Shown here: positions 36,439-61,756 of the stretch, one piece after another | Numbering within the stretch: position 1 is the stretch's first letter | How the letters are laid out: each line of letters begins with the position of its first letter | Origin: Schmidtea nova | Lineage: Eukaryota | Assembly (NCBI GenBank): GCA_044892505.1 | Contig: CM097882.1 | Span: 407,278,001 to 407,342,000 of the forward strand | Direction: 5' to 3' | Length of the DNA: 64,000 bases | Notes under the pieces: model-generated | Database searches by the model: none | Seen by the model: only the letters and a program-made list of their open reading frames with translations | What the model was told of the DNA's origin: nothing | Translations under genes and position numbers: made by a program

Positions 36439-36840
36439 ATGACTTGTTATTTTATTGATATTTATGGATATTATGAAATGGGTGGAACAACAATTAAGGA
36501 ATTATGTATTATGAATGTAAATAGTATTTTCACACCTCAGTATTATATATACAGTGATTTATCTTTCTGGCCTGATCGTTTAGAATGGTTTTAAGGACAA
36601 GATTATTTTTGCCCAAAATGTATTATGGATGATATTATAGATAAAGGAGCTATTTTCTATGTTACAGATAATGAAAAGTTGCAAGTTTTGAAGAAGTATT
36701 TCCCGAAATTAAGATTAATTAAATATAATTATAAAGAAGTTGAATATGTTCCAGAAAACATCTCATGTCCCTATAAAGATCATTGTATGTGTGCCTATAA
36801 AGGGTGCTTGTCTGGTGTTGTAGATTATTTGAAACAATAA
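36439..36840 (+). pseudogene. Small Polinton gene, possible DEDD-exonuclease-like N-terminus
   Basis: MTCYFIDIYGYYEMGGTTIKELCI continues in frame through one stop into ORF 36625-36840 (C..KDH..CA). Confidence 0.45.
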
Positions 36841-37452: not shown

Positions 37453-37810
37453 ATGAATAATATTAATTTAAATTCAACAAGAAGAATCATCGGAGGATTA
37501 AACAGTAAATTTATTATTTTTTAATTGATTATTATTATTTGCTTTTTTATAGACGTTAATTTATCAAATAATATTGCAGGATCTTCGTCAAACGGATTAT
37601 TAAATCAAAATAGAATTATTGGTAAAATTAATAATTCTTTATTTTTTCTTAATAAAAATTTTGTTTTTAGAAAATAATAATATGAATGCCGGTTATACCG
37701 AAAATAATCAAAATGCGATGAATTTCAATGCCCTGAATGTGACGTCTTTCGATGTCTCAAATATGACGACTTTTGATGTCCGATGCAGAGTTTTAATAAC
37801 TCTAGAAAAT
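37453..37810 (+). CDS. Spliced small Asn-rich Polinton gene (at least 3 exons)
   Basis: ATG 37453. Introns 37505-37552 (48 nt) and 37622-37670 (49 nt) are both GT-AG and keep the frame open. TATA-like motif at about 37365. Confidence 0.6.
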
Positions 37811-38106
37811 GTAATTTTTGTTTATTTTTATATGATGAACATATTTTTTAAATATTTTTTATGTTTTATAAATTAATGATCATATTTTTATGAATAAAAT
37901 ATTGTTTTTTAATAAATGATGATAATTTATGAAGAAAATTATGATGATCAAATTATGATATTTTATGAAGATGAAAATTATAAAGAAAATTATGATGATG
38001 AAAAATTATGATATTTTATGAAGAAAATTATAATGATGAAAATTATGTATAACAAGAAATCTTTATTATTTTGAAAAAGATGACAATAATGATAAAAATT
38101 ATGAAT

Positions 38107-38340
38107 AATGAAACCTTTTTTATTTTGAAAATGATGATATTTTATTACTTAATGAAACCTTTATTATTTTGAAAATGATGATATTTTATTACTTAATGAA
38201 ACCTTTATTATTTTGAAAATGATGATATTTTATTACTTAATGAAACCTTTATTATTTTGAAAATGATGATATTTTATTATTTTGAAAATGATGATATTTT
38301 ATTACTTTTTTAAACCTTTATTATTTTGAAAATGATGACA
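38107..38340. repeat. 44-bp tandem repeat, about 5 copies
   Basis: Unit aatgaaacctttattattttgaaaatgatgatattttattactt. Confidence 0.85.
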
Positions 38341-39269
38341 ATAAAAAATAATGATAAAAATAATGATATTTTATGACCATAAAAAAATAATGATGAAAAT
38401 TATAATATTTTTATACTGAAAAAATTGTTTGCTATTATTAATATGATTTTTATGATAAATATACCTTTAACATATTAAGTAATATATTTCAATTACTTAA
38501 TATGCTAAATGTTAAAATAATAATAAATATGATAATCTTTAATATAATATGTAATATTTTTATAACTATAACAAATTAAGTTAAAGAAAAAACATTTTTA
38601 ATTATTTTTAGCCATTTTATTTAAATTTTATTTAATATTCAGGTTTATTATATTTCAATTTTTGTAATAGTCGTTTCTATAATGATTGTCATATCATTAT
38701 GGAAAAATACTATTCATACAAATATAATGGTGTCACCCACCTACTATACCCAAAATGTAAAATTATAGAAACTACTTCTTATAACGAATTTTTTCACCAT
38801 CTTACCCAATATATGCCTTCTAAGAAATCTCTTTTTAATAGTTTATACCAAAACTATATCTCTAATAATAACTTTAATCCAAATAATAATCTTAACAATA
38901 ACAACAACCTTAATAATTCCAACAATAACAACTATCTTAATAATTCCAACAATAATAATAATTTACAAAATAATAATAATTACAACAATAACAACAATAT
39001 TAATAATTTACAAAATAATAAGAGAAAAAATACACATAATAGATTCAACTCCTAATTAAATAATAATAATCGACATCAGTGATGATGAAGATTTAAATAA
39101 TAATAATAATAATATTGATATTATAACCATCAGTGATGATTAAGATATTTATTATAATAATAGTAGTAATATTGATATTATATCCACCATTGATGATGAA
39201 GAAATAACCATCATCAATGATGATGAATTTTCAGATATAATTAATATTATAAATAATAATCAAATTGGC

Positions 39270-42200: not shown

Positions 42201-42552
42201 AAATCATCCTTTATACAGTAGGAACCATGATTCTGTCATTGGAAAATTCAAAGACGAGAATAAAGGGCTACTGTATGAAGAGTGGGTGTTCTTAAGACCA
42301 AAGTGCTATAGTTTAATGGGTGATGAGGCTTGTATGAAAGCCAAGGGGATTTGCACGAAAGATGCTGGACTAACACATCAGTCGTATCTTGATTGCTATA
42401 TAAATAATAAAATATATACAGTCCCCCAGTTCAGAATAACTAGTAAGAACCACCAGTTATTTACTATTAAAAATAATAAAAGGGCTTTGACTTGTAAGGA
42501 CGACAAGAGTAATTGGATAGATAAAAATAAGTTTGGCATATGGCCATTATAG
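39270..42552 (+). pseudogene. Protein-primed family B DNA polymerase (pPolB), disrupted
   Basis: Exonuclease motifs YVDFED, FHNLKGYD and YLKLDV. EndoVII/HNH-like RDHDHFTG...AAC..CN. Polymerase motifs YIDINNLYG, KLLNNSLYGK and GDTDS. Stop at about 39500 and frameshifts at about 40940-41065. An Asn-rich extension probably starts near 38699. Confidence 0.95.
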
Positions 42553-43759
42553 AGGCGGTGACACCAATATATTTGTAGATGATCCAGCAGAAGAAATCAA
42601 TGATGTACCGACATTGCCGATGGATGAAGATCCTTATGCCTTTTATGAGCCTCCGGACCAGCAATATTTACTATGATGACGAAAAATCAAAAAAAAGATT
42701 GAGAATGAACAATCGGCCCTCTTCAGGGCCACAATTCGCGATTGTATAAAATATTGCGCAATCAATTAAAACTAATATTGTTTAAATTTTAAAGATTAGG
42801 AAAACACGGATAATAAAAAGAAACAACGATTTGTGAACCATAATTATTGATTGTAAAAAGAGATTCAAAAAGATATGAAAAGGATATTAACCTGGGAATC
42901 AAACAGAGAGAATCAAAAAGATTTGTGAAAGTTAAAAAATGGTCCTCTTTAGGACCATAATTTTTGATTGTATAAAATATTGCGAAATCAATTAAAATTA
43001 TTACCGTCTTCTTTTATGTTATTGATTTAATGTATTTAGAGTTATTTTGTTATTTATTTTTAATTTTCTAAGTTTTTATTATCATTTTTATTATTTTTAT
43101 TATTCAAAGTTAATATTATTATTATTATTATCAAAGTTAATATTATTATTATTATTATTCAAAGTTAATATTATTATTAGTATTATTATTATCAATTTGC
43201 ACGCGGGGTGTTATAGAATGAAAGAAGCACAACGCGCGTTCAATGAGTACTGTTATTATCTTAAAAAAGTAAAGACAAAGAACGCGCGTTCAATAGTTAC
43301 TCATATTTTTATTAAAAATCCGCACACACACATGAAATATAATCGTGTACATAATTTCAAATACAAGTTATATTAGTCTTTGTTTCGGCGCACATGCATT
43401 GCAATGTCTTTGTTTACGTTGCACATGGATTGCAATGTCTTTGTTGTAATTGGGGAAGGAAATAGTCGTTGAAAAATTATAACACACACACATCATGCTT
43501 ACCTCACAATTACCTTTTGTTTGATATGTATATTATAAAAAATGTAAAAGGATTGTAACACACACACACCATGCTTACTTCTCAATTACCTTATTACACA
43601 CGTAGTTTGAAAAGTTTGAAGGTTTTTGACTCCTTGAAGGTTGAGCACCCACCATACACCTTCGAGGGTATGACCATTGGATAGACCTCTCTAAGACCTT
43701 TCGAATGATACCCTTGTTTGAAGGTTTGATCTTATTTGACCCTTGGAAATTTAAATTTA

Positions 43760-43927
43760 GAATTTGAAATGAGTCATCGATGACGTCATAAAATTCAAAT
43801 TTGAAATGAGTCATCGATGACGATATCGACGAGTCATAAAAAAATTTCTACCCACCCGGGGGTTCTTTGTTATGAGTCATTGATGAGTCATAATGTCTTT
43901 GTTTCCGGCTCCACACTTCTACCTACT
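43760..43927 (-). repeat. Right terminal inverted repeat of Polinton A with AP-1/CRE motifs
   Basis: Reverse complement reads AGTAGGTAGAAGTGTGGAGCCGGAAACAAAGACATTATGACTCA, nearly identical to the sequence from 50129. Confidence 0.9.
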
Positions 43928-44830
43928 TTTATGTACACCAAATCTCCAACTTTAATATCATGTACATGCACACGTTTGTCATAGCACTCTTTATGCTTCT
44001 TGATTATGCCTTATTTTCAATCCCGCTTGGACCCATACTGATTGCAGTCTTTCCTGCATTATTACTTTGTAATCGGATACGTCCATGTGTTGTGAGATTG
44101 GTGGTTGAAACTTTAAGTCAATCGGCATATTGTTTCGTCGTAGGTACATAAGATAAAATGGTTTTTCACCGGTGCTACCATTCACTGCATTTCGAAATGC
44201 AAACAAACATGGCTTAATGAACAAATCCCAATCTTTTTGTTTCCTGTTTACGTAAGACGAAATCATGTTAATTAATGTTCCATTAAATCTTTCGACTAAC
44301 CCATCTGTTTGAGGGTGATATTGGGATGTATTAAGTTTTAGGATTCCGAATAATTCGGTGATAGATTTAAATAATAATGCTTTGAAAGTTTGTTCCTTGG
44401 TCTGTGAGCAATGTCTTGGTGCTCCGTACTGAAATATGATGTTTTCTACAAATATTTTCGCCACAGTTTCTGCTTTTTGATTCTGCATTGCATATGCTTT
44501 CGGCCATTTTGTTAAATAATCACAAAATACGATGATATATTTATTGCCATTGGTTGCTTCTGGTAGTGGACCAACAATATCCATTGCTGTCATTTCCATT
44601 GGTGCTACCGGCGCGGGCATAGGTTTCAAAGGAAATTTTATTTTTCTCCATGTATTTCGCCTGGTCAGACAAACTTCACAAGTGTGACACCATTGTCTGA
44701 CGTCTTGCTCTATCGTATCCCAGTAATATTTCTGTTTTAATCTTGATAATGTTTTTTCGAGCAGATAAGTGTCCTCCCAATGCCCCCATCATGATACAAC
44801 AACAGTAATGCTGTTCGATGTTTTGTCGGT
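43928..44830 (-). pseudogene. Gypsy integrase
   Basis: YHDG..GGH...C..C zinc finger; AMDIVGPLP; DYLTKW; YHPQTDGLVERFN; WD..I...LFAFRN. Confidence 0.93.
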
Positions 44831-45050
44831 ACTACTATTACTAAGTTTTCATTTTTCACACATTTCAACAAACCGTCGGGGATGACGTATTTATGTTTTT
44901 CTTCTGCAATGTGCTTCCAGTCACTTTCTCTTTTTATTGTGACAGCATGTTTACGCAATTGATTCAATTCAACAACGTTTTCCTTATCACACTGTAATTC
45001 CTTCATATTATTTGCCGTTTTAATTGCCATAAATATTGTATTTTCATAAT

Positions 45051-46632
45051 TTAATTCATTTTGAATAATATTTTCTTCAGGGATTCTCGACATTGCGTCC
45101 GCATTTCCGTTTGACTTCCCGTACGGTACTTAATTTCGAAATCGTACTCTTGTAATGCAATTGACCACCTAATCAGCTTGCTTGCTGAATCTCTATGCTT
45201 CATTAACCATTGTAATGGATTATGATCCGTAAATACAATAAACTTTCTCCCAACCAAATATTGTCGAAAATTAGTTATCCCATATACTAATGCTAGAGTT
45301 TATTTTTCGATTATGGAATAATTTTTTTTCATGCGGTTTTAATGAACGGCTTGCATAAGCGATTACGTGAGCGATTATTAAAATATTGCACCTTCTAATT
45401 GCTGTCCCAGTACTGCTCCTAATGCAAAATTGCTTGGATCAGTCATCAGTATAAATGGTTTTTTGAAGTTCGGACATCTCAATATTGGTTGATTGATAAG
45501 ACTCTTTTAATTTATCAAATGCTTCTTGTTGAGCTGTTGCCCATTTGAATTTAGTCTGCTTTTTTAGCAACATGTTTAAAGGTTGTGCTACATGCTAAAA
45601 ATTCCTTATGAATTTCCTATAATAGCTCGCTAATTCAAGAAATGGTCGGACCTGGTCTGCATCTTTGGGATCGGATACTTTTTAATCTTTTCAATATTTT
45701 CTGGGTTTGGTTGTAACCCTCTCCGTGAAATTATATGCCCTACGTAAACAACTTCTGATTTTCCCCATTCACATTTTGAAGGTTTTATTTTTAGATTGGC
45801 TTCTTTTAGCCGTTTGAACACTATTTCCACTTCTTTTAAGTGTTCCTGAAAATTATTATATTATCTATATAGACTAATGAATGTGGTATATCACGCAAAA
45901 CAAAATTCATACCTCTCTGGAATGTAGCTGGTGCTCCAGTTAGACCGAATGGTAGCACATTAAACTCATATAGTCCTTTACCATCTGAAAATGCCGTTTT
46001 TCTCCTGTCTTCCTCTTTGACTTTAAATTGGTTATATCCTTTTTTAAGATCGATTACTGTAAAGAATTGTACTTCTCCCATCTAATCAAACATTTCTTGC
46101 GGAACTGGTATAGGAAATGTGTCTTTCTTGTCACTTGGTTTAATTTCCGATAATCGACACAAAATCGTAATTCACCGTCCTTCTTTTTCACTACTACTAT
46201 TGACGATGAGAATGGTGATGAACTATCTCTTATTATTTTAAATTCCTTCATGGCTTTAATTTGCCGATCGCTTTCCTCTTGATGTGGAATTCTGTACGGT
46301 CGTATTTTTATAGGGGTTTTATCAAGCAATGGTATTTCGTGTTCAATTATCTGAGTGAGTCCTAGATCATACTCATGTTTCGCAAATGCATTTTTATACC
46401 TTTTCAATAGTGTCGCAAATCCTTGTCTTTGTGCTTCTGTTAGATCATCACTTGTCACTTGTGGTTCTTTATAGATTTTGATATTTCTAGGTAGCTTTTG
46501 CGCTTCTTCCTCTTTCATTTTCGTCAGTTTTCCCAACTTTGTTTTGGGTTTCATCTGAATTGATTTTGTGCTACAATTAGATATTCTTACTGGCACTGTT
46601 TTGTCTTTAATTTTTACTATTTCGTCACACAT
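45051..46632 (-). pseudogene. Gypsy reverse transcriptase and RNase H (frameshifted)
   Basis: KKKDGELRFCVDYRKLN; IDLKKGY; LPFGLTGAPATFQR; YIDNI (YxDD mutated); TDPSNFALGAVL; FTDHNPLQWL. Confidence 0.95.
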
Positions 46633-46718
46633 AGGTACGACTTACTTTTCTATTAGTTTTTGATTTGGTTCGAATATACACTCTTCTTCGGAAACATTCT
46701 CTACATTAGCGTAGTATA

Positions 46719-48071
46719 TCACTTCGCTTTTTGGTGGTACTTCCAACGTTTATTTAAAAAGACCTCTCCTGCTTCATGAGCTACTTCATCAGTCTGCCTT
46801 TTTATTAATTTTCCCGTCTTTAAGTCCAGTGAGATTCCTTGTAATTGTTCCATGATGTCCATGCCAATCAAACATTTGACAGGGCTTTTTCTCATTACAG
46901 ATACCCAATGAATTACTTCCTGATTTCCAATGTTCAACTTTACTTCCAATTTTCCAATAATATTTAATACGTTATGCGTCATTGATTTAATAATTTTTGT
47001 TGTTTGCTTTATTTTCGTTTTTTCCTGTCTCGTTAGGAAACTTTCCGATACTATACTGTGACTCGAGCCTGAATCCAATAACGCTTCCACTTTTCTTTCA
47101 TTAAACTGTATGGATACTCTAGGTTGTTTTCCGTCAATTTCTATTGTCATCAATGCATAACTACATGGTAACCCAAGCATGTTCTTTTTTTCAATTTCGG
47201 CACTTGATGGCTCAATCTTTTCTAGTTCGATTTTAATCTCATCAACTGGCTTCATTTCTCTCAACTTTTCACTTGGGTATATTGGAGCTGTTGGTATAAA
47301 TGTCGGTGTGTACCATTTAGAAAGAATGTCAATTCCTGTTAATTTTGGCATTAGTTCAAGCAAGAACCTAGTCTCGGATTCTATTCTACTTTTCATTATG
47401 CTCCTTCGAAACACTTTCTGCTCTGACCTGCCGCCACCGTTCTCATTATCATGACCATTATTTTTATCCTCGTGATCGCATAGTGATTCTTCGCTTCTTT
47501 GATCATTTCTCAATTGCGCCCGTACATTTGCCATTTCCTTGTATTGGTGACTTGTAATGAAGAATCTCGCTAAAAATGGAATACAACCAATAATCATTTT
47601 CCATGACCATCCGGAAATTGTATATATCCTGTGAGCGGACAATACTTGTGATATTATCACCTTTACCGTTACTGCAATTACATAAATACCAATTAAACCT
47701 GCACATGCTTGTCCCAAAAACATAAAATTTCCCCAAATCTTTTCCATTGTTTTGTAAGTAGCTCGTTTAAAATGATAAGGTGTCAGCAGGTATTCGTAGT
47801 TAACTTTCCCTTCTCCATTCGGCAATATCGTATCAATCATTTCTGAAATCACGCGTTCCTTTTTTGACGGAAATAACAAATTTCTTTGGGCTTCTTCGAT
47901 GTCTTCGTTCGCATATAAGCCCATTTGTGCCATTTTATTCATTGATGTAAAATTTATTAAATATTCCAAATTCGTCAATTCCAATTTATCCGATGTTTTT
48001 ACTCTTCGGTAATCTGGTAGCGCTATCCATCTTGTGCTTAGCGATATAATGGAGCTAATAATCGATAACAT
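46719..48071 (-). CDS. Single ORF fusing the glycoprotein C-terminal/TM region to a retroviral-type aspartic protease
   Basis: N-half: GLY..EDI......LLFP, WGNFMFLGQACAGLIGIYVI..VK, GWSW. C-half: VEALLDSGSSHSIVS...CLIGMD. Confidence 0.9.
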   Translation of the reverse strand: MLSIISSIISLSTRWIALPDYRRVKTSDKLELTNLEYLINFTSMNKMAQMGLYANEDIEEAQRNLLFPSKKERVISEMIDTILPNGEGKVNYEYLLTPYHFKRATYKTMEKIWGNFMFLGQACAGLIGIYVIAVTVKVIISQVLSAHRIYTISGWSWKMIIGCIPFLARFFITSHQYKEMANVRAQLRNDQRSEESLCDHEDKNNGHDNENGGGRSEQKVFRRSIMKSRIESETRFLLELMPKLTGIDILSKWYTPTFIPTAPIYPSEKLREMKPVDEIKIELEKIEPSSAEIEKKNMLGLPCSYALMTIEIDGKQPRVSIQFNERKVEALLDSGSSHSIVSESFLTRQEKTKIKQTTKIIKSMTHNVLNIIGKLEVKLNIGNQEVIHWVSVMRKSPVKCLIGMDIMEQLQGISLDLKTGKLIKRQTDEVAHEAGEVFLNKRWKYHQKAK

Positions 48072-49295
48072 GGAAAGGTTTTTGGTTTAACTTGTTCATC
48101 CAGCAATATTCGGGTTATCGGTTCCATAAATCGTAGTTTCCCGCCAACACTTACTGGCAATTCACATCTACTAAATTTGGGTTTGTAACCGCCATCGCCA
48201 TTCGATTTCGGAGTATTCTTTATTCAATTTACAATCGTTCAAGATCATTTCTCTATATATGTTCTCCATGGTATTTTGGCTAAAATGAAATAAATAATCA
48301 ATTTTATTATTAAAGTAATGAGTTAGTTTTATATCATCCCTGTGGATTCTTGTTTTCGCTTCATGTACAGTCGTTTTTGCCACATATACTCCTTTGTAAT
48401 TTGTTACATAGACTGTTTGACCACATTTGCTCGTAATCTCCTTTTTAATAAAGCGCATGCTGTCTGTTGGCAAGGTTGACATTAAAACCGTTGCTGTTTG
48501 TCTTGTCCAGAGTGGAGTTGACCTGACTGTGCCATTTTGTTTATAATTCATGTTAAAGTTGTCTGGTCTCTCCTTAAATTGCTCTCCGGTTAACTCTTTG
48601 AAATTCATTATTTTTAAATGAGTTAGGTTACATATATTGGTTTTAACATCGTAAACGAGAATTGACTCCCCCGTGTGACAACTAGTTTGCTTCATATTAC
48701 AAAATGGATGAGTTTGTAGTTTTCCATTATCATCATCAAAAGATCCTTCGAACATTCTCAATTCGGTTAAGTATTCCTCTATTACCAGTGTGTGTTTAAT
48801 TATTTTCTCATTTATTTTATACGGTTCACCTTCACAGTCACCATCTGATTTCATCACTCCCTCCACCACTAACGTTTCTCGAATTTGATGATTTAATTTC
48901 GCTTTTAATCGAATTTCAGGACTGATTTTTATTTCTCCCGTTTGAAAGGCTGTTGAGCAATTTTCTGGCAATACATCCACCGGTCGTGGAATGGCGTGCA
49001 TTTTGATTAATGACGTATGGCTCCATTTACCACAGAAGAATACAAAAGTGGTTCGTTTTACAATGCATTCTCTAACTTTGGTACCCCGTAAATCTGATTC
49101 TTGATACACATGGTATTTTACTTCGTTTTCAATCTTTAATTTTTGAGGGTATGCGTCTGGACACTCTGACATATCAACCACTGAGTAAATTTTCCCCATT
49201 TCTGTTTGTGAACAATCGTATGCCACCAATGACGTTGTTTGTGCAATAACTGCACATAGGATAATCATCATGAACATCATCCAAGGAAATATCAT
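48072..49295 (-). pseudogene. Chuvirus-like (class III, gB-type) envelope glycoprotein ectodomain
   Basis: Signal peptide followed by LVAYDCS; conserved Cys pattern (FFCG, DGDCEG, KCG, CKLN); LTHYFNNK; ELPV....RFMEPITRIL in a shifted frame. Confidence 0.85.
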
Positions 49296-49388
49296 CGTCT
49301 TCCTTAGTTTTGGACTTACTCTTCCGTTTAATTGCCTTTGCGGTGAATCATTTTCCGGTTTCTTTCTTTTCTTTATTATCGATAAATT

Positions 49389-49796
49389 TAATGCTTTCCA
49401 CCCTCCACGCTCTCTCAGCCAATTAATTAAAGACTCATTTATTAGTCGAGCCGCAATGTCAATTAAATTATCAAGCTTGTCTGACTTTGTAAATGCATGA
49501 ATACCGATCTCTTAAACAACGTAGGTTAGAATTAGTAGCACTACTTCTTTATCAATCCCATTTTCGATCAACTTTTCTATTACTTCACATTTACAAAAGC
49601 TATCCTCTTTGCCAAATTTCCGCACTACTTCTGGAAGTCTGATTTTCACTTCCTCTACTATTCCTTTCAATTCCTCTTCCGTTTCAGTCTCTATTTTTAG
49701 AATTGGGTATACGACTTTAACCAAATTTCTTATTACGTCACTTGTTTCGTCAACTTCCTGCTTTAATTTTATTAAGGTTTTCTTCATCTCATACAA
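49389..49796 (-). pseudogene. Bcl-2-like domain in frame with the glycoprotein
   Basis: ORF 49796-49512 continues in frame past one TAA into EIGIHAF...LDNLIDIAARLINESLINWLRERGGWKAL (BH2-like). It is preceded by EVIEKLIENGIDKEVVLLIL (degenerate BH1-like). Confidence 0.62.
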
Positions 49797-50164
49797 TGTT
49801 CTAGACTTCGCATTCGCACTTTTTATTTTTCTTTTTTCGATATTCGTATCTTCAATAACTGTCTTTCTGCTGTCTGAGCATTATTATTAACCCCCTTTTC
49901 ACCATCATAACCATCAGTAACTATTTCAATTTCGCTTTCCTTTATTTCTTCTGTATCTGAAAATTTGACTTTGTCAAGCATCCTCGAATTATATTCTTTA
50001 TTTGCGATTATGCGATTTATTAAATACCCCTGACTTCCATTAGTACTTAAATACCCATATTCATCCAGTTCCTGTGACACACATCCGCAGTCATATAAAT
50101 ATTCATCGTCATCCAATTCTTCATCTTTAGTAGGTAGATGTGTGGAGCCGGGAACAAAGACATT

Positions 50165-50515
50165 ATGACTCATGCGTGGGCGGAAAAAAAAGAACAAAGA
50201 CCCCCCGGGGGGGGTAGCAAAAAATTTTTTTGATGAGTCATCGATGAGTCACCGATGAGTCATCGATGAGTCATACTTTTTTTGATGAGTCATCGATGAG
50301 TCATCGATGAGTCATAATTTTTTTTTGATGAGTCATCGATGAGTCATAATTTTTTTTTTTCAAAAATTTTTTTTCGCGCCAAATTTTTTTTTCAAAAATT
50401 TTTTTCGCGCCAAATTTTTTTTTCAAAAATTTTTTTCGTGCCAATTTTTTTTTTTCAAAAATTTTTTTCGCGCCAATTTTTTTTTTTTTCAAAAATTTTT
50501 TTTTTCAGGCCAAAT
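50165..50515. promoter_or_regulatory. AP-1 (TGAGTCA) array followed by E2F (TTTCGCGCCAAA) array in the Polinton B terminus
   Basis: Nine GATGAGTCA units at 50232-50349. Three TTTTCGCGCCAA plus two variants at 50371-50514. Function is inferred from motif identity only. Confidence 0.6.
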
Positions 50516-50914
50516 TTTTTAAGACAAATTATTTTTAGTCAAATTTTTTTTTTTCAAGACAAAATTCGAGTAAACAAAAATATTTACAGTAGGTGTGCAA
50601 ACTAAACAAAGACATTTTTTTATATGTGTGCATGTTTAATTAATTATTATTTGTCAAGTATGAAGCTTTTGCACTTCAAAACCATCACAGAAGAGGTTCT
50701 GCTTCCAGGGTTCTGATCGCAATGTTCTGCTTCCAGGGTTCTGATACTAAATGTTCTGCTACTAATTATTATTTAATTATTATTTTTTCAAACTAAACAA
50801 AGACTTTGCAACACGTGTGCAACATGAACAAAGACATTGCAATACACATGCAAACTAAACAAAGACACATGCAACACATGTGCAACATAAACAAAGACAT
50901 TAAAAAGACAAAAT

Positions 50915-51490
50915 TTATTTATAAATATATCGTTGTGTACGTGTACAAAATTTAGTTTCAAAATTATTTACATCTGAATTATTACTCGGAATATTATTCA
51001 TTGTAATATTATTCATCGGAATACTAGTATTTGTCGGAATATTATTCTTTGGAATATTTGAAATCTTCTCCAGCCGTATGGATGCCGATAACATCAGTAT
51101 AATTATTAATATAAATAAACTTATATAATGTAAAACAATTGCTGTTTTATCGTTTTCCACTGTTTGATTTTGATTTTGATATCTGACTTCATATTCTTTT
51201 TTAACAATAGTTTGATTTATACATTTTAATCGTTCAACTATTTTCATCATTATTTTGTTAATCATTTTTTCAATATCTTTATTTATCACATTATTTTTGG
51301 AAGGACATTGATTACATTGCAATTTTATTTGATTGCATTCAATGTTTGAGTAAAGACATATATCGTTATAACTCGCGCAAGTACTATCTTGTTTTCGAAA
51401 CGGATGGGATGATTGACAATCTTCCAAAGCTTGTTCTCCTTCAGTATTGTCAACACATAATAATAATAAAATAACTATAAATAATTTCAT
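50915..51490 (-). CDS. Type I membrane protein (signal peptide, Cys-rich ectodomain, TM)
   Basis: MKLFIVILLLLCVDNTEG signal peptide, several Cys, TM segment IVLHYISLFILIIILMLSA. Confidence 0.75.
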   Translation of the reverse strand: MKLFIVILLLLCVDNTEGEQALEDCQSSHPFRKQDSTCASYNDICLYSNIECNQIKLQCNQCPSKNNVINKDIEKMINKIMMKIVERLKCINQTIVKKEYEVRYQNQNQTVENDKTAIVLHYISLFILIIILMLSASIRLEKISNIPKNNIPTNTSIPMNNITMNNIPSNNSDVNNFETKFCTRTQRYIYK

Positions 51491-51554: not shown

Positions 51555-51971
51555 TTATGCGTATCTTGCATTGTCAACTCTCCAAATCGGAGTAACAACA
51601 TCTTTTTTATCAATCTTGTACCCTTGAATAATAACTGTAACGAACCAGTGTTCTTGATCCATGAAATCAATAGTCTGAAAAGCATCATGGAACCGAGTTT
51701 TTCTGTTATTGATGTACATTGTTTCTTTACAAGCCAAATTAACATTCATCTTTGAAAATAATCGATTTAATGCGATAATATCTTCCTTGGCAATAACTAC
51801 AGCAAGACTGTCATATAACGATTTTGTTAACTTTACCGGAAATGATAATCGATACGGTATTTCATTAACCAAAAAATAAAGTCGGCTGTCATAATACATC
51901 TGAACTGGTTTTACCTCAGTCTGATATATTTTTTCATCGCATATATCCAAATTTTGTTTTCGAGATTGCAT
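51555..51971 (-). CDS. Conserved Polinton hypothetical protein
   Basis: Intact ORF with diverged homologues at about 22370-22640 and 28267-28674. Confidence 0.8.
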   Translation of the reverse strand: MQSRKQNLDICDEKIYQTEVKPVQMYYDSRLYFLVNEIPYRLSFPVKLTKSLYDSLAVVIAKEDIIALNRLFSKMNVNLACKETMYINNRKTRFHDAFQTIDFMDQEHWFVTVIIQGYKIDKKDVVTPIWRVDNARYA

Positions 51972-52523: not shown

Positions 52524-53192
52524 TTATTGTTCGGCGTTTTCTTTTTCTTTTTCTTCTTCTTCTTCTTCTTCTTCTTCTTCTTCTACTTCCTCCTCCTCTT
52601 CTACAACACCACCATCAGCCTGTCGATGGCATTCGGCACAATCCGGTGATTGTGGCGATTCCATACAATCATTAGATTCATCGGATGGATACGGACCATC
52701 GAGTGTTGGTGCTTCCAAATCTGTTGTTGTTGTTGTTGTTGTTTCATCTGCATCAATCGGCTCCGGAGTTGAATTGGGCCAGGTTTCCTTGATTTGCTCT
52801 TCTTCCTCATCGATTTTGTCCATTTGTTGGACTTCATATAATCTGAGGGAATTCCTCAACACCCAAATATTAAACTGTCGAATACGTTCGACGCAGCTCC
52901 CGCATTGGTACGCACAGATAATGTGCTCGGGTACCCTTGGGAGATCCGTATTCTGGCTCGTCATGTGATCGAGCACAATCTGGTTTATATCGATTCCCGT
53001 CAAGATCATTATCTTGTACGGGAACATCTCCGGAGCCGTGTAGACCAGAGCCGGCATAAGATTTGGGAACAGTTCCTCCAATTTCCGATATAACACGTTC
53101 ATTAATTTATCTAAAATAATAATAATATAAAATATGAAAAATAAATAATTAAAATCCTTACGGCTTTTAATTAAAGTTTGGGTCATCGACAT
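52524..53192 (-). CDS. Acidic, Cys-containing hypothetical protein, probable 51-nt intron (53111-53161)
   Basis: CAYQCGSC and CAECH motifs, poly-Thr and poly-Glu tracts. GTAAGG...TTTTAG segment near the 5' end. Confidence 0.7.
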   Translation of the reverse strand: MSMTQTLIKSRKDFNYLFFIFYIIIILDKLMNVLYRKLEELFPNLMPALVYTAPEMFPYKIMILTGIDINQIVLDHMTSQNTDLPRVPEHIICAYQCGSCVERIRQFNIWVLRNSLRLYEVQQMDKIDEEEEQIKETWPNSTPEPIDADETTTTTTTDLEAPTLDGPYPSDESNDCMESPQSPDCAECHRQADGGVVEEEEEVEEEEEEEEEEEKEKENAEQ

Positions 53193-53367: not shown

Positions 53368-53835
53368 TCATGAGTCACATGTTAGTATGAAATCAACAAA
53401 GGCTTTATCTTCTATAATTGATTTTATATCGTAAATAATATCATCAACTATAGTACTATAGTCTTTGTTTTTTAATCCTAATATGACTATTTTTCCGCTT
53501 GCAAATATATTTACACACATGGGATTATATTTGATATATCTCAAAGCTGGAAATAATTCTGGCTCGTAAACACATGGTATTAATTTCGATAATTCATTCA
53601 AATTACAAATAAATCCTAAATCCGCAGTTACAGTTATCGATTGTATCTTTAAATCATAAAACTCAACTTGTTCGTCACTAATAAATTCCCTGCATCCCAT
53701 TATTCTATATCTTCCTGATTTAAAGTATATTATTGGGTATTTTCCACTTCGATCTACAATTTGCTGGGGTTTTCCATTTGGAAATTTCATGTGCGATACA
53801 TCGGTCTTACCCTTGTAATTAATGTTTCTAATCAT
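53368..53835 (-). CDS. TATA-box-binding protein (TBP)-like
   Basis: IQSITVTADLG...NLNEL...YEPELFPAL...IFASGKIVILG is a TBP repeat. A degenerate first repeat reads IRNIN...YFKSGRYRIMG. Confidence 0.88.
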   Translation of the reverse strand: MIRNINYKGKTDVSHMKFPNGKPQQIVDRSGKYPIIYFKSGRYRIMGCREFISDEQVEFYDLKIQSITVTADLGFICNLNELSKLIPCVYEPELFPALRYIKYNPMCVNIFASGKIVILGLKNKDYSTIVDDIIYDIKSIIEDKAFVDFILTCDS

Positions 53836-53928
53836 TACTGAAAATATTTTTAAATGAAATTATTACTTTGATAACCGTTATTTAAAACAAATATAAACAA
53901 TAATATTAAGAAAATATAATTTTTAAAT

Positions 53929-54552
53929 ATGGAATTAAGAAATGATGCAGTGTTTCAAATTGTTGGTCCGAGCGGGAGTGGAAAAACTTTATTTGTTTGT
54001 AAATTATTGCAATCGAAATTATTCAAGTCGAAATTTAATAATATTTATTGGCATAGGGGTGCTGACGACGAAAGTGGAATGACACAAGATCAGTTTTGTA
54101 AAATAAAAATGACAATCATTAAAGGTTTCGATAAAAACTGGTCATCTAGATTAAAACATGGTGATGTGATTATCATTGACGACTTGTATCAAGAAGCAAA
54201 TAAAGAAAAGGATTTCAATAACTTATTTACGAAAATCAGTAGACATAAAGGTGTTACTGTTATTTTTATAACTCAGAATTTATTTCATCAGGGCGGTAGT
54301 CATCGTACTCGTAATTTAAATGTTCAATATCTTGTTGTTTTTAAAAATCCTAGAGATGCAACAGTTATTGATTTTCTGGCAAGACAAGCTTATCCTTCTA
54401 ATCGTAACTTTTTGATTGAAGCCTTTCAAGATGCTACAAAATCTCCTCATGGATATATTTTCCTTGATTTTACTCAACAATGCAGTGATGATTTAAGGGT
54501 TAGAACTGATATTTTTAACAGTGAAGGAGCCATGGTTTATAAACAAAGTTAA
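53929..54552 (+). CDS. A32/FtsK-like packaging ATPase
   Basis: Walker A GPSGSGKT, Walker B IIIDDL, SRH, FITQNLF, RT.NLN.QY.V.FKNPRD. Confidence 0.95.
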   Translation: MELRNDAVFQIVGPSGSGKTLFVCKLLQSKLFKSKFNNIYWHRGADDESGMTQDQFCKIKMTIIKGFDKNWSSRLKHGDVIIIDDLYQEANKEKDFNNLFTKISRHKGVTVIFITQNLFHQGGSHRTRNLNVQYLVVFKNPRDATVIDFLARQAYPSNRNFLIEAFQDATKSPHGYIFLDFTQQCSDDLRVRTDIFNSEGAMVYKQS

Positions 54553-54572: not shown

Positions 54573-55091
54573 ATGTTAATGAAATCTCGAGTAAAGTTTG
54601 AGCCATTGATAAAGGCTAGAACAAAGAAAGCTGGAAAGAAAACAAAGAAACTATTTACAAAGAAATCTATAAAGAAATCAAGAAAGAAATCCAAGAAAAT
54701 ACTTATGGATAATATTCCCAAAAATAATCAAATTAAATTGAAATCTAATGCTAAACAAACACATCATCGGAGTTTACCGTTTTTTAATGCATTACTTAAA
54801 GCCCCTTCCGTTAGAAGAATGGGTATTCTTCAATCGTTTCCTAGTTACGTCATCGATGATTTACTCTCTATTTTAATTAAAGTCGTGCGAGGTAAAATGA
54901 ATCTAACTCCATCTAATCGTCGTGTTTTGAACAAGCATAAAAAACCATTGTTGTCGCTAGTAAACTCAAAAAATAAAAAACTTATGCGCAAAGTAATATA
55001 TAAACAACAAGGTGGTTTTATCGCAGCATTGTTACCATTAGCATTATCTTTATTGGGAGGTGCTGGTTTATTGGGAAAAAGAAAGTCATAA
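54573..55091 (+). CDS. Basic Polinton core/membrane-lytic-like protein
   Basis: Lys-rich N-terminus. C-terminal QQGGF followed by amphipathic IAALLPLALSLLGG. Confidence 0.8.
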   Translation: MLMKSRVKFEPLIKARTKKAGKKTKKLFTKKSIKKSRKKSKKILMDNIPKNNQIKLKSNAKQTHHRSLPFFNALLKAPSVRRMGILQSFPSYVIDDLLSILIKVVRGKMNLTPSNRRVLNKHKKPLLSLVNSKNKKLMRKVIYKQQGGFIAALLPLALSLLGGAGLLGKRKS

Positions 55092-55094
55092 ACA

Positions 55095-55316
55095 ATGGGT
55101 CAATCATTACCTAATTTAAATTTAAATTTTAAATCTTCTTGTTGTAATGGAGAAGATCTGGACGAACCCAAAAGACGACGCCGGTTTCGGTGGAGTCGAA
55201 AAGCTAAGGAAAAAAGCACAGAAGTCGAAACAACAGACACAAAGTTGGTTATCGGGGCAACTTGCATACAGTCTAAACAAACCGATGCTGAAACGGTTTC
55301 CAACTCGAGCATATAA
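55095..55316 (+). CDS. Small overprinted ORF, possibly lipid-anchored
   Basis: MGQSL...SSCC...KRRRRFRW. Starts 4 nt after the upstream stop and overlaps the integrase in another frame. Confidence 0.45.
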   Translation: MGQSLPNLNLNFKSSCCNGEDLDEPKRRRRFRWSRKAKEKSTEVETTDTKLVIGATCIQSKQTDAETVSNSSI

Positions 55317-56192
55317 AACATATAGAATCAATGATTTGTGGCAAATGGACTTGATGGAAATGATTCCGTATTCCAAAATTAACAAGGGGTACAAGTATAT
55401 TTTAACATGTATTGATGTTTACAGTAGATTTGCTCGAGCAATTGGAGTCAAATCAAAATCTGCTAATGATATGGCAATTGCTATCAAGACAATGATGAAA
55501 AAGGATCGGCCAACTAATTTACAAACCGATTTGGGTAAATTTTAATTTAAATTTATAAATTTAATATTTTTTTAGGAAAGGAATTTTACAACAGTAAAGT
55601 CAAGGAAGTAATCAAGGGAATAAATCATTATTCGGTATTCTCACAATTCAAAGCCGCTCATGTCGAGAGATTTAATCGAACTTTGCGTGATCGATTGAAA
55701 AAATACTTTGTTTTTAAAGGCAATAAAACCTGGATTAATGTCTTACCTCAATTGATTCATAGTTATAATCATAGTGCTCATCGGGGTATAAATGGCAGGA
55801 AACCGGCAGAAGTAGTTGATACTGAAAATATTGTGAGTGAAGTGAAAGTAAAGAAACCAAAATATAAAGTTGATGATCATGTTCGAATTAGCAAGATTAG
55901 TACATCGCCATTCGTTAAAAATTTTGATAATAATTGGAGTGATGAGGTATATCAAATATCGAAAGTCAACACAGTGCAGAATCCTGTCATGTATACTATT
56001 CGTGACTCTGATAACAATATAATCAGTGGCAAATTCTACGAACAAGAATTACAAGTTATTCCTAAACCTACGATATTTAGAATTCAAAAGATTTTGAAGA
56101 CTAAAATGGTGGGTAAGGATAAACAATACTATGTTAAATGGCATGGATATAAAGAACCATCATGGATCTCGTCAAAAAATCTAGTAAAGTGA
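55147..56192 (+). CDS. Polinton retroviral-type integrase with C-terminal chromodomain, two exons (intron 55535-55575)
   Basis: LWQMDL, YILTCIDVYSRFA, TDLG/KEFY restored by splicing, HVERFNRTL, YYVKWHGY...SW. Spliced length 334 aa. Confidence 0.93.
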
Positions 56193-57205
56193 ATTTTTAC
56201 ACTATTTTACCGAGCAATAGTTGTCCGAATATCCATCCGGATAATACTGCAAGTAAATTCATGGTGAATTTACCTAATCCAATTTATTTAAACGGAAATT
56301 GGGAAGTTGCTCTAATGGATTTTACATTTGTTTACCAACCTTTTCCATTTTATAGTCAATGTCAAAATTATTACACACAAAAGGAAAAAACTGTTGCAAA
56401 TGCGTTTTTCTCGATATATAATAATAGTGGCCATCTGAATGTTCCAAATCACACAATTGATCCAGATATCGAATTGTGGCAACGAGGTGGAAAAATAATT
56501 CTCACGTGTAATATTGTTCCGTATACAATTACATTTAACGATCTTGATGTAGCAAAACGAATGGGAAGTAATAAACTGACAATAACATGTAATGAAGAAG
56601 AATGTTCATTTCCAGTTTCGAAAAACTTGGCCAGTAACGAAGAAGAAATAATAACTTTTAATGTATCGTATTATCGTGATGTAGAGCATGTATTCACATT
56701 CAAGGAGGATTTGTATATAACGCATCTAGATGAATTACAGAAATATATTAGCGATAATTGTTCGTATATTTTTACAGTTGTCGAATTAAATAAATTGTTC
56801 AAATTCAAACTCAAAGATTTAATCACTAAAGTTCGATTTGATAAATACTTGGTGAATACATTGGGATTAGATAAGGATAAATTTACAGATAAAAATATCA
56901 TTTCTGGTGTTCGTCAACCGAAAATATCTAAACTTCATCAGCAATTATTCGTGTATACAAACATTATCGAACCCATTATTGTTGGTGATTCTTTGGTTCC
57001 TTTACTAAAATCGGTATGGATTGAAAAATACGATGCTGATGAAATTGTTCAAATAGTAATGGATAATCCAATGTATTTATCTGTTTCAACATCCTGTATA
57101 AACAATATAGAAATAAATATCCGGGATGACAGCGGAAGATTTATAAAATTTCCAAAAGATTCAAAAACTCACTTAACTCTACATTTTCGAAAAATCGATG
57201 AGTAA
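56162..57205 (+). CDS. Polinton minor capsid protein (penton)
   Basis: FYTILPSNS...NT.S.F.V.LP.PI.L.G.WEVAL; LFVYTNIIEP..VGD..VPLL; IEINIRDD.G..I.F; LHFR. Confidence 0.92.
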   Translation: MDLVKKSSKVNFYTILPSNSCPNIHPDNTASKFMVNLPNPIYLNGNWEVALMDFTFVYQPFPFYSQCQNYYTQKEKTVANAFFSIYNNSGHLNVPNHTIDPDIELWQRGGKIILTCNIVPYTITFNDLDVAKRMGSNKLTITCNEEECSFPVSKNLASNEEEIITFNVSYYRDVEHVFTFKEDLYITHLDELQKYISDNCSYIFTVVELNKLFKFKLKDLITKVRFDKYLVNTLGLDKDKFTDKNIISGVRQPKISKLHQQLFVYTNIIEPIIVGDSLVPLLKSVWIEKYDADEIVQIVMDNPMYLSVSTSCINNIEINIRDDSGRFIKFPKDSKTHLTLHFRKIDE

Positions 57206-57581
57206 TCCCGATATAGTTTCAATGTACAGTGATAGCCAAACTGGTGGCGAATTACCGTATTTTGTCGGTAAACAGTACGGATCAGGTTGGTTGAAAACTA
57301 TTGGGAGATTTGCACTTCCAATTCTTAGACGACTAGGTAATTTCGGAATGAATACTGCCAAGGACGTTATCATGAAAGATAATAAAATATTACCGTCATT
57401 GAAAACCAATGCTTTGGCCGCAGTTAATAAAGCTATACCTGCTGTAACACAAATGCTTCCTACAATTACAAGTATGTTTACAAAAAATAAGGAACCGGAA
57501 TCTGTACCGGTAGGACCAAGACGTAAACGAAAGCGTATAAACAAACGAATGAAAGGTCATGGAACTATATTTGAAGAATGA
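57198..57581 (+). CDS. Polinton basic core-like protein
   Basis: QTGG, QYGSG and KGHG adenain-type sites. Stop overlaps the capsid start (ATGA). Confidence 0.82.
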   Translation: MSNPDIVSMYSDSQTGGELPYFVGKQYGSGWLKTIGRFALPILRRLGNFGMNTAKDVIMKDNKILPSLKTNALAAVNKAIPAVTQMLPTITSMFTKNKEPESVPVGPRRKRKRINKRMKGHGTIFEE

Positions 57582-58541
57582 TTTGCGGTAAATCTGAATT
57601 ATGTCTTTATGATCGACCATCACCTCAAGCAGTTATTGAATATGGGGCGTTTGAAGATGTGTTTCCAATGAATTCAATTACAGATAGTAGAAATGATGTC
57701 GAATTTTACATTAATGGTTCTCAAACCGAATATTTGGATTTGAACGATACATTATTGTCCGTTACAATCAAAGTTGTTGATAAAGATAAAAAAGCTCTAG
57801 CCGATGCGAGTGATGTAGTTCCCAATAATTATTTGTTTCATACACTTTTCAAAGATGTAATTCTCGGATTTAATAATATAAAAATCGAGGGTGGAAACAA
57901 TACATATGCACACAAGGCAATAATCGAAACTATTTTAAATTATACGAATGATGCTAAAGAAACATGTCTTACTCCAATGGGATATGGTTCAGCTGACGAT
58001 CGGAAAAAATGGATCAAGGGATCTAAACTTTTCAACATGTGTTCGTCATTACAACTGGATTTTATGGATCAACCTAAATACTTACTTCCCGGAGTTAATG
58101 TACATATTAGATTGAAGCGATCTGATTCTGCATTATCATTGAAATCGGTAGCTGGGAAACCAGTTATCCAAATAGTTGATGCAAAATTAATGGTAAGAAG
58201 AGTTCGATGTGATTCTTCAGTATTGGCCGGTCATCAAATTGGATTAAATAAAAAACATGCAATTTATCCATTAAAATCAAAAGAAATCGTATCGTTTGCA
58301 ATCGGTAAAGGGGCATCGTCATTTTACAAGGAGCAGATATTTGGAGATAGACGAATGCCTAATTTCATTCTTGTGGCTTTTCAATCCGAAAATCAATATA
58401 ACGGATCTTATACCGAGTCAACATCTACATTCAAACATTTTAATGTGACTTCATTAACATTGTCGAAAAATACCGATTATCGTGAAACATATACCCAGGA
58501 TTTTGAAAATGATAATTTTAGTGCATCATATATGCAAAGTC
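57578..58541 (+). CDS. Polinton major capsid protein, truncated by insertion of copy C
   Basis: Closely similar to 34720-35680. Similarity stops exactly at ...ATGCAAAGTC (58541). Confidence 0.93.
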
Positions 58542-58650
58542 AGTAGGTAGATGTGTGGAGTCAAACACAAAGAAATGAGTCATAATGCGTGGGCGTAAAA
58601 ATTCAAACAAAGACTTTTTAGTTACCGAGCCCCCCCCCGGGGGGGGGGGG

Positions 58651-59300
58651 GGTTCGCGCCAAAATTTTTTTTCGCGCCAAAAATTTTTTTTTCAAATTTT
58701 TTTTTCGCGCCAAAAATTTTTTTTCAAATTTTTTTTTTCGCGCCAAAAATTTTTTTTTCAAATTTTTTTTTCGCGCCAAAAATTTTTTTCAAATTTTTTT
58801 TTCGCCCCAAAATTTTTTTTTTAAAATTTTTTTTGCTCCAAAATTTTTTTTAACACAAATTTTTTTAACCCAAATTTTTTTCACACATTTTTTTAACACA
58901 AATTTTTTTAACACAAATTTTTTTTTAACACATTTTTTACACACAAATTTTTTAACACAAATTTTTTTAACACATTTTTTTTTGACACAAATTTTTTTAA
59001 CACAAATTTTTTTTTAACACAAATTTTTTTAACAAATTTTTTTTTTAACAAATTTTTTTTTAACACAAATATGAGTCATCGAAAACTTTGCAACACGTGT
59101 GGAGTCAAACACAAAGAAATGCGTGGGCGTAAAAATTCAAACAAAGACTTTTTAGTTACCGAGCCCCCGGGGGGGGGGGGGGGGTTCGCGCCAAAATTGT
59201 TTTTTTTCAAATTTTTTTTTTCGCGCCAAAAATTTTTTTTTCAAATTTTTTTTTTCGCGCCAAAAATTTTTTTTTCAAATTTTTTTTTTCGCGCCAAAAA
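58651..59300. promoter_or_regulatory. Two arrays of E2F-type TTCGCGCCAAA sites
   Basis: Five copies plus one variant at 58651-58810 and four copies at 59185-59300, with about 30-35 bp spacing. Confidence 0.6.
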
Positions 59301-59989
59301 TTTTTTTTTTAAAATTTTTTTGCTCCAAAATTTTTTTTTTTCAAAATTTTTTTAACAAATTTTTTTAACACAAATTTTTTATTTTTTACAAAAATTTTTT
59401 AATTTAAGACAATTTTTTCTTTTTAGACAAATTTTTTCTTTTTACAAAAATTTTTTAATTAAGGACAAATTTTTTATTACACAAAATTAGAGTCATCAAA
59501 AATATTTGCAACAGGTGTGCAAACTAAACAAAGACATTGTTGTATGTGTGCATGTTGAATTAATTATTATTTGTCAAGTATGAAGCTTTTGCACATCAAA
59601 ACCATCACAGAAGAGGTTCTGCTTCCAGGGTTCTGATCGCAATGTTCTGCTTCCAGGGTTCTGATCGCAATGTTCTGCTACTAATATTGTTATTTATTCA
59701 TTTAATTATTATTATTATTATTATTATCTTTCAAACTATACAAAGACTTTGCAACACGCGTGCAAGTTAACAAAGACATTGCAACACACGTGCAAGGACT
59801 TTGCAACACGCGTGCTTTTGCACATCAAAACCATCACAGAAGAGGTTCTGCTTCCAGGGTTCTGATCGCAATGTTCTGCTTCCAGGGTCCTGATCGCAAT
59901 GTTCTGCTACTATTATTGTTATTTATTCATTTAATTATTATTATTATTATTATCTTTCAAACTATACAAAGACTTTGCAACACGCGTGC

Positions 59990-61756
59990 AAGTTAACAAA
60001 GACATTGCAACACACGTGCAAGGACTTTGCAACACGCGTGCAACATGAACAAAGACATTGATACACGCGTGCAACATGAACAAAGACATTGCAATACACA
60101 TGCAAACTAAACAAGGACAAAACTAAACAAAGACATTGCAAGTTAACAAGGACTTTGCAACACGCGTGCAACATGAACAAAGACTTTACAATACATATGC
60201 AAGTTAAACAAAGACATTTCAATGCCAAAAACTAAACAAAGACATTTCATTGCTTTATTTCATAACAAAGACATTTCAATGCCAAAAAACTAAACAAAGA
60301 CATTTCATTGCCAAAAAACTAAACAAAGACATTTCATTGTCAAAAGAAAAAAAAAACTAAACAAAGACATTTCATTGCCAAATTTCATAACAAAGACATT
60401 TCAATGCCAAGAAACTAAACAAAGACATTTCAATGCCAAATTTCATAACAAAGACATTTCAATGCCAAATTTCATAACAAAGACATTTCAATGCCAAAAA
60501 ACTAAACAAAGACATTTCAATGCCAAATTTCATAACAAAGACATTTCAATGCCAAAAAACTAAACAAAGACATTTCAATGCCAAATTTCATAACAAAGAC
60601 ATTTCAATGCCAAAAATCTAAACAAAGACATTTCAATGTCAAATTCCTTAACAAAGACATTTCATTGTCAAATTTCATAACAAAGACAATTCATTGCCAA
60701 AAAAAAAACAAAACAAAGACAATTTATTGCCAAAAAAAAAACTAAACAAAGACATATCAATACCAAAATACCTAAACAGAGACACGAACATTTACTAGCA
60801 GAACATTTACTATCAGAACATCTTTTGTGATGGTTTTTATCTGTCAAAGCTTATTACTCGAACATTTATTACAATTCAAAGATTATATATGTACTCTTAA
60901 ACATAGAATCTTTTCATAACAAAGACATATCATTGCCAAAACATCTAAACAAAGACATTTCAATACCAAAAACATCTTAACAAAGACATTTCAATGCCAA
61001 AATAACTAAACAAAGACATTGTAANNNNNNNNNNNNNNNNNNNNNNNNNNNNNNNNNNNNNNNNNNNNNNNNNNNNNNNNNNNNNNNNNNNNNNNNNNNN
61101 NNNNNNNNNNNNNNNNNNNNNNNNNNNNNNNNNNNNNNNNNNNNNNNNNNNNNNNNNNNNNNNNNNNNNNNNNNNNNNNNNNNNNNNNNNNNNNNNNNNN
61201 NNNNNNNNNNNNNNNNNNNNNNNNNNNNNNNNNNNNNNNNNNNNNNNNNNNNNAATACCAAAACACTNNNNNNNNNNNNNNNNNNNNNNNNNNNNNNNNN
61301 NNNNNNNNNNNNNNNNNNNNNNNNNNNNNNNNNNNNNNNNNNNNNNNNNNNNNNNNNNNNNNNNNNNNNNNNNNNNNNNNNNNNNNNNNNNNNNNNNNNN
61401 NNNNNNNNNATTGCAATACATATGCAAGTTAACAAAGACAAAGTAATGTAGATACTAGTTAACAAAGACATNNNNNNNNNNNNNNNNNNNNNNNNNNNNN
61501 NNNNNNNNNNNNNNNNNNNNNNNNNNNNNNNNNNNNNNNNNNNNNNNNNNNNNNNNNNNNNNNNNNNNNNNNNNNNNNNNNNNNNNNNNNNNNNNNNNNN
61601 NNNNNNNNNNNNNNNNNNNNNNNNNNNNNNNNNNNNNNNNNNNNNNNNNNNNNNNNGGATTCAAAACTTTTTTAAACAAAGACATTGTAATGCTAAAACA
61701 TCTTAACAAAGATATTGCAATACAGATACTGGTTAACAAAGACACACATGCAATTT

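Follow-up and report, generated by a model that had tools for sequence, protein, structure and literature searches.

In its proposed mode of action, the gene reported here has its closest described counterpart in herpesviruses, where a viral TBP mimic (ORF24 in KSHV, BcRF1 in EBV, UL87 in HCMV) works with host Pol II at a late box, TATTWAA; ORF24 is described as part of a six-protein complex and as binding Pol II directly (PMC6541308). Large DNA viruses also encode TBPs, in which, according to another study, the N-lobe signature for regulator binding has been lost and the TFIIB-contact residues have diverged, many of these viruses carrying a TFIIB of their own (PMC7221094). For cellular TBP, that study assigns most of the basic patch bound by TFIIA, Mot1, Brf1/2 and TAF1 to helix 2 of the N-lobe; the TFIIB contacts are two glutamates of the C-terminal stirrup (PMC7221094; PMC10005294). 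A TBP is not part of the standard Polinton gene set, a statement of the first-pass annotation of this locus that holds; yet a "TBP" label is already in print, in the Fig. 5 legend of a MELD-virus/adintovirus-like map (Starrett et al. 2021; PMC8502044). That label marks a Polinton-like virus gene, which may be of the short family described below or of a second, 189-aa type; the word "promoter" has no occurrence in the text, and one supplement contains no TBP or TATA string. We found no paper on the short TBP family or its box in a literature search that left uncovered subscription journals, Repbase reports and bioRxiv supplements, any of which may hold an annotation. The present analysis bears on how capsid genes are controlled in animal Polintons and on whether a virus-like temporal cycle exists in these elements.

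The window, a 64,000-nt stretch of Schmidtea nova DNA, contains an intact TBP-fold gene at 53368–53835 on the minus strand. It is an uninterrupted, intronless ORF of 155 aa, as the first-pass annotation had read it, and both peptides quoted there are present, YEPELFPAL at aa 90–98 and IFASGKIVILG at aa 110–120. The Pfam TBP family (PF00352) matches the protein with E=3.7e-14 and 52.8 bits (cut-off 22.9) over aa 62–133 only, and all 35 matches in a search of PDB sequences are TBPs. An AlphaFold model built on a 61-sequence alignment (pLDDT 93.9) aligns with solved TBPs over both lobes (Z 12.4–12.5, rmsd 2.5–2.6, 140 residues aligned), its residues 1–142 pairing with 164–337 of human TBP. The profile match and the two-lobed saddle together establish the TBP fold, and the reduced first repeat that had been described is real, because the model superposes on TBPs across both lobes. 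The gene is also kept in other copies of its family: at least 150 genome matches, a lower bound and not a copy number, are all full-length, 99–100% identical and free of stops. More divergent families in the same genome retain it at 53–85% identity, and dN/dS between families is 0.10–0.21 in seven of nine pairs, the other two being saturated; by these ratios the short TBP gene is under purifying selection.

By homology to fuller copies, the copy in the window spans ~50.1 kb to 58541 and is broken off inside its hexon-type gene. Rightward from the TBP gene, on the plus strand, a 93-nt divergent spacer (53836–53928) leads to an A32-type packaging ATPase of 207 aa (53929–54552; Pfam Pox_A32, E=6.6e-7), a basic ORF of 172 aa (ORF172, 54573–55091; no Pfam match, and called core-protein-like from its position), a retroviral-type integrase (55147–56192; Pfam rve), a penton-type (minor capsid) ORF of 347 aa (56162–57205; no library match), a 127-aa ORF (ORF127, 57198–57581) that is conserved between the penton-type and hexon-type genes, and a hexon-type (major capsid) ORF (57578–58546) that is cut at 322 aa here and reaches 406 aa in fuller copies. 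The labels penton-type (56162–57205) and hexon-type (57578–58546) follow from gene order; the capsid-type ORFs found no match in Pfam, NCBIfam or PDB sequences, and their positions are those expected for Polintons. Leftward, on the minus strand, lie an acidic ORF with Cys residues (52524–53192), which follows the TBP gene and has CCAAT boxes upstream, a 138-aa ORF (51555–51971) with a canonical TATAAATA and CCAAT upstream, and a 191-aa ORF with a hydrophobic N-terminus (50915–51490), the last gene before a left terminal region (50127–50876, the outer limit approximate) that is shared with three other copies. The 138-aa protein has a predicted OB-type fold and a weak match to the phage Enc34/T7 gp2.5 ssDNA-binding proteins (best E 5.5e-3), and is a probable SSB on this modelled evidence. 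Protease and PolB are missing from the truncated window copy and are seen in the fuller copies only, where the former is a Peptidase_C5 and the latter is ~79% identical to a Pfam DNA_pol_B_2 protein. With its integrase, A32 ATPase, protease and PolB, the TBP-bearing element is by gene content a Polinton/Maverick of adintovirus-like type; no inverted terminal repeats were seen in the fetched stretches, which stop short of the right ends.

Several features of the surrounding DNA may be recorded here. A direct-orientation copy of the left terminal region occupies 59185–60119, just behind the truncated capsid gene, and the left end of the element is adjoined by a Gypsy-type retroelement (43000–50200) that encodes an aspartic protease as well as a fusion glycoprotein of Monjiviricetes type (Pfam PF24664, E 5e-31 and 5e-26). 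A second, related Polinton at 33689–42552, with several split frames, shares 90% DNA identity with the TBP-gene copy over the capsid–protease block and ~79% in PolB; its PolB is not part of the TBP-gene copy. The integrase of the TBP-bearing element is broken by a 41-nt GT..AG intron-like stretch (55535–55575), and such stretches, of 40–47 nt, occur at one integrase position in 11 loci of the host's TBP-bearing families (the window, L117, L118, L120–L122, L124, L128 and L141–L143). In six metagenomic relatives the integrase is uninterrupted at this position. The distribution suggests that the intron was gained in the host lineage and that the integrase is expressed in the nucleus, with splicing.

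Protein searches place the window protein in a distinct family of 145–160 aa, the top 64 of 80 matches being 37–76% identical to it and other searches adding further members. A metagenome scan confirmed 140 loci, of which 80 were retained; a Polinton hallmark gene lies on the contig in 38 of these 80, and in 20 of the 23 that are at least 4 kb long. Judged by identity and gene neighbourhood, the short TBP is thus a member of a widespread, ~150-aa Polinton family. A scan of IMG/VR with TBP, ATPase and two hexon alignments gave no confirmed relative and hence no control set, and a search of the Atlas returned small TBP clusters only, with unreliable taxa. Relatives differ in where the gene sits: some have it ahead of the ATPase, some behind the protease block and others elsewhere. 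The head-to-head arrangement with the ATPase across the 93-nt spacer, which had been noted from the window, recurs in all 30 copies fetched from the genome (one being the window copy itself) but is not the rule among the metagenomic relatives: TBP and ATPase are co-directional in 24 of the 27 metagenomic loci that have both genes, and the head-to-head layout is therefore a trait local to one lineage.

Besides the element's gene, the host genome carries at least four TBP genes: a canonical one (L111), a second (L112/L113) and two divergent ones (L114 and L115). In a quick tree of 100 rows, in which 25 sampled short-family proteins and 13 others represent the family, seven database rows are omitted, eukaryote and archaeal labels come from motif rather than taxonomy and no AU test was made, a long branch (SH-aLRT 99) sets the 38 short-family rows apart from all others, and the four host TBP rows are placed among the eukaryote-type TBPs. 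Since the short family and the host TBPs are separate in this tree, the short TBP is, on phylogenetic grounds, no recent capture from this host. The phylogeny proposed in the first-pass annotation thus separates the family from host TBPs; its comparison with large-virus TBPs is not contained in these rows, the only candidate from a scan for canonical TBPs being a weak locus (L131) that was left unused. The two divergent host paralogs (L114:2837–3448 and L115:3050–3502) group together, also with SH-aLRT 99.

The short TBP retains a complete C-lobe, and its N-lobe consists of four strands in the model, which has no helix of at least four residues before aa 79. Relative to two-lobe TBPs, motif spacings and the hhalign gap make the N-lobe ~10 residues shorter at helix 1 and ~14 residues shorter at helix 2, and N-lobe helices 1 and 2 are therefore predicted to be lost. 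The stirrup glutamates E91 and E93 are both present in 61 of 61 aligned members, an invariance inflated by the recovery of these members through shared words, and in 73 and 76, respectively, of the 77 sequences in a wider set. As to the DNA-kinking phenylalanines, which the first-pass annotation had proposed to model, three of the four are kept (Phe38, Phe95 and Phe111, invariant in the short family), and the fourth, at the N-lobe stirrup position, is replaced by K or P, in an inferred register.

The remainder of the DNA face is likewise fixed, at residues other than those of canonical TBP. R44, M46, C107, N109 and L119 are fixed in the short family, whereas among 50 two-lobe TBPs the corresponding residues are V in 34, T in 37, V in 39, L in 45 and T in 39, respectively. 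By our own mapping from anchor residues, R99, C107 and N109 fall on I194, V203 and L205. Position 36 of the short TBP, which we take to be that of a leucine with a described role at variant boxes, remains I, L or V. This TBP leucine is said to clash with G at a variant box position (PMC4402545). I194, V203 and L205 are the positions altered in TBPm3, an altered-specificity TBP mutant for which C is reported as disfavoured in the 3′ half of the box (PMC1636458). A DNA face that is conserved but changed leads one to expect a target that is likewise conserved but changed.

A candidate for such a target emerges from the upstream regions of the elements. When 294 of these regions, made non-redundant, were scanned for k-mers without prior bias, the top 8-mer was TATAAACA, with 76 occurrences against 4.4 expected. 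Of its single-base neighbours, all are nearly absent but those with C in position 1 or G in position 8; position 7 is A in no case and C in 49. For counting, genes were divided into a late-type class (ATPase, core, integrase, penton-type, ORF127, hexon-type and protease) and an early-type class (TBP, SSB, PolB and ORF222), a division set by homology and not by a time course or a mapped start site. The core ATAAAC stands on the sense strand before 91 of 111 non-redundant virion and integrase genes (antisense before 5) versus 12 of 98 early-type genes, and in the metagenome loci alone before 77 of 87 late-type genes (antisense before 1) versus 7 of 71 early-type genes. The nominal Fisher P for this bias between classes, ~1e-25, is not a real probability, because the counted genes stem from related elements. 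A larger set of 142 genes, with 119 carrying ATAAAC forward and 6 reverse, includes three gene classes added after the motif was known, and the a-priori count of 91/111 is the one we use. As a rule a gene has a single sense-strand ATAAAC, which lies mostly 30–45 nt ahead of the ATG, with the peak in the 30–49 nt range. The canonical TATAWAWR peaks at the same distance and has the opposite bias, preceding 36 of 98 early-type versus 22 of 111 late-type genes.

In the window, all six late genes have a box (6/6, with a chance of ~0.12 each). The best-kept block of the 93-nt spacer across genome families is TATAAACA (53892–53899, plus strand, as are all boxes given here with both ends), 36 nt from its first A to the ATPase ATG, and on the TBP-gene strand of the same spacer (53836–53928) a canonical TATA box is absent. 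Further copies of TATAAACA lie at 54538–54545, in the 3′ end of the ATPase gene (codons Y-K-Q) and 34 nt before ORF172; at 57097–57104, 100 nt before ORF127; and at 57536–57543, inside ORF127 (codons I-N-K) and 41 nt before the hexon-type gene. The integrase ATG is preceded at 59 nt by CATAAACA (55087–55094), with a second box at 54999, and the penton-type gene at 43 nt by GATAAACA (56118–56125). Boxes often lie inside the preceding gene, in two reading frames, and the dipeptide I-N is spelled ATA-AAC in 30 of 47 cases near gene ends versus 17 of 105 elsewhere, a usage by which the box overrides codon bias in the genes that house it. Before the acidic ORF (52524–53192), ATAAAC was found in none of eight non-redundant copies. 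TBP-bearing relatives (L074, L085, L096, L061 and others) carry accessory genes of phospholipase A2-like, KilA-N, C2H2 zinc-finger and LRR types, and the box precedes 10 of 11 phospholipase and 5 of 5 LRR genes.

Presence of the short TBP and presence of the box coincide in every case seen, the controls amounting to about three lineages, none of them shown to be complete. A second group of Polintons, found in the same genome and with no TBP match, has ATAAAC at 25–60 nt before none of 32 genes and anywhere within 150 nt before three of them; it is represented by related copies (L132:3007–9901, L133:1–4739, L134–L137 and L139) whose completeness is not established. In L132/L133 a Polinton of this group is nested in a TBP-family element, and in the group as a whole (T)ATAAA(A) stands immediately before many start codons. 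A scan with the ATPase only gave five loci; the one with a short TBP has the box before all four of its genes, and an element with the 189-aa TBP type has ATAAAC before none of eight. L148 was dropped as a TBP-less control, its contig carrying another TBP type. L145–L147 have ATAAAC before none of 15 genes and were downgraded as TBP-less controls, being partial contigs of higher GC with TATAAGA at ATPase ends; this word occurs at the ATPase gene end, 43–63 nt before the next ORF, at L145:5203 and L146:906, and these two may hold another TBP off-contig. No terminal repeats were found in the control elements. A 22.9-kb Polinton-like contig (G003:C86) without an ATAAAC box encodes a 189-aa two-lobe TBP-like protein that lacks the stirrup glutamates (L159:12475–13041, minus strand), and TTTAAG-like words stand upstream of four of its eight genes; by this protein, a second TBP type exists in Polinton-like elements.

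Compared with known systems, the protein is of the TBP family and is not a canonical TBP. Like cellular TBP (PF00352), it has a two-lobed saddle, a complete C-lobe, a YEPELFP stirrup with the TFIIB glutamates and three intercalating phenylalanines. Unlike it, it is ~25 residues shorter, is predicted to lack the N-lobe helices, has K or P for the fourth phenylalanine and a DNA face fixed as R, M, S, R, C, N and L, and is encoded by an intronless, mobile gene on a long branch apart from the host paralogs. Its resemblance to the herpesvirus mimic (PMC6541308) lies in the pairing of a viral TBP-like factor with a TATA box that is variant and stands ~30 nt ahead of late genes. The box is YATAAACA rather than TATTWAA, however, and the protein, 155 aa and almost all TBP fold, has kept the TFIIB stirrup and has no Pol II-binding N-terminal domain. 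BcRF1 was matched weakly (E 0.048). No neighbour family is common to all short-TBP loci, several neighbours have no Pfam match, and a partner complex is not evident. By analogy, the short TBP would work like the ORF24/BcRF1/UL87 system without being a member of it. With the large-virus TBPs, as characterised in PMC7221094, it shares a viral TBP fold and the loss of the N-lobe regulator signature; unlike them it has invariant glutamates, no TFIIB gene seen alongside it and helices predicted to be deleted outright, and large-virus TBP matches in BFVD are 169–500 aa long compared with its 155 aa.

We think it probable that the short TBP is a late-gene TBP that reads YATAAACA and recruits host TFIIB and Pol II. 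The TBP and the SSB/polymerase-side genes would be made first, from host-type TATA/CCAAT promoters; the short TBP would then bind and bend YATAAACA, in which the C at position 7 would be disfavoured by host TBP, the stirrup glutamates E91 and E93 would take host TFIIB, and Pol II would be started on the virion and integrase genes at the box. The TFIIB is taken to be that of the host because no TFIIB-like gene was seen among the neighbours of the short TBP. One candidate, L149, was rejected as a TFIIB, a motif marking it as Brf1-like. Without basic helix 2, the short TBP would escape Mot1, TAF1, TFIIA and Brf and would therefore work outside TFIID and Pol III complexes. That a viral TBP may direct Pol II to the late genes had been proposed from the window, and the strand- and position-specific box together with the retained glutamates now lends the idea correlative support; gene and box could also be co-inherited without contact. 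Some points fit poorly: the TBPm3-equivalent changes belong to the C-lobe, whose usual half-site is the 5′ one, nearly canonical here, while the odd C falls in the 3′ half; the N-lobe leucine position remains aliphatic; and the short TBP gene of this lineage has no canonical TATA of its own.

The mismatch between lobe and half-site is where a different mode of binding comes in. The opposite strand of the box starts TGTTTA, resembling the TG start accepted by TBPm3 (PMC1636458), so that either binding orientation is possible, and the positions equivalent to those of TBPm3 are the ones fixed in the short family. A protein bound in reverse, or non-productively, could repress the virion genes or bend DNA in the service of replication or packaging. 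Each gene, however, has one box, on the sense strand and at the distance from the ATG at which early-type genes have canonical TATA, and the TFIIB contacts are kept, and we regard this possibility as quite improbable. The first-pass annotation had also raised a dominant-negative action on host TBP, whereby the TFIIB stirrup would soak up TFIIB, or host TATA boxes would be occupied, damping host transcription. Invariant TFIIB glutamates beside a coactivator surface that is predicted to be lost are what such a decoy would look like, but a decoy needs neither a fixed non-TBP DNA face nor a matching box, and the host genome holds at least 150 intact, near-identical copies. It is less likely because it leaves the box and the altered DNA face unexplained, and we give it only a slim chance.

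The box itself might be a real late core promoter read by host TBP or a divergent paralog, the element's protein having a side role and travelling along. Crystals of host TBP bound to a C(-25) variant box have been obtained (1qn3, from the title of the entry), with Hoogsteen pairing discussed elsewhere (PMC4402545), and of the host's own TBP genes, at least four in number, the two divergent ones (L114 and L115) are potential readers. Yet divergent elements of many metagenomes share the box, its position 7 is C in 49 cases and never the canonical A, and the second Polinton group, exposed to the same host, has no box; reading by a host protein thus seems unlikely to us. ATAAACA also fits the forkhead consensus, RYAAAYA, and could be a host forkhead-factor site that confers tissue-specific expression and is unrelated to the TBP gene. 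In the 142-gene set, however, neither GTAAAC (10 forward, 7 reverse) nor ATAAAT (24 forward, 27 reverse) is enriched, and ATAAAC itself is bound to one strand (119 versus 6) and a fixed distance. On these counts a forkhead site is very improbable.

If the short TBP is indeed the late-gene switch, the protein should prefer YATAAACA over TATAAAAG. A conserved late box with a candidate reader makes predictions on both sides: the box tells where transcripts should start, and the protein implies a switch without which the virion genes would fall silent. More tentatively, and with rather less confidence than we place in the late-gene role itself, a broad clade of nuclear Polintons may run its early-to-late programme through one minimal TBP of 150 residues that lacks the regulator surface and is orthogonal in its use of YATAAACA, such that host TBP cannot use the box and the viral protein ignores TATA, and that depends on nothing from the host beyond TFIIB and Pol II. 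Such a factor would then be an independent, one-protein counterpart of the six-protein herpesvirus late complex. The box could serve as an annotation marker for late genes in the short-TBP Polinton clade. If the late-gene reading is true, these elements would provide a natural altered-specificity TBP–box pair and a natural minimal TBP, one that supports initiation without the surface for TFIIA, Mot1, TAF1 and Brf.
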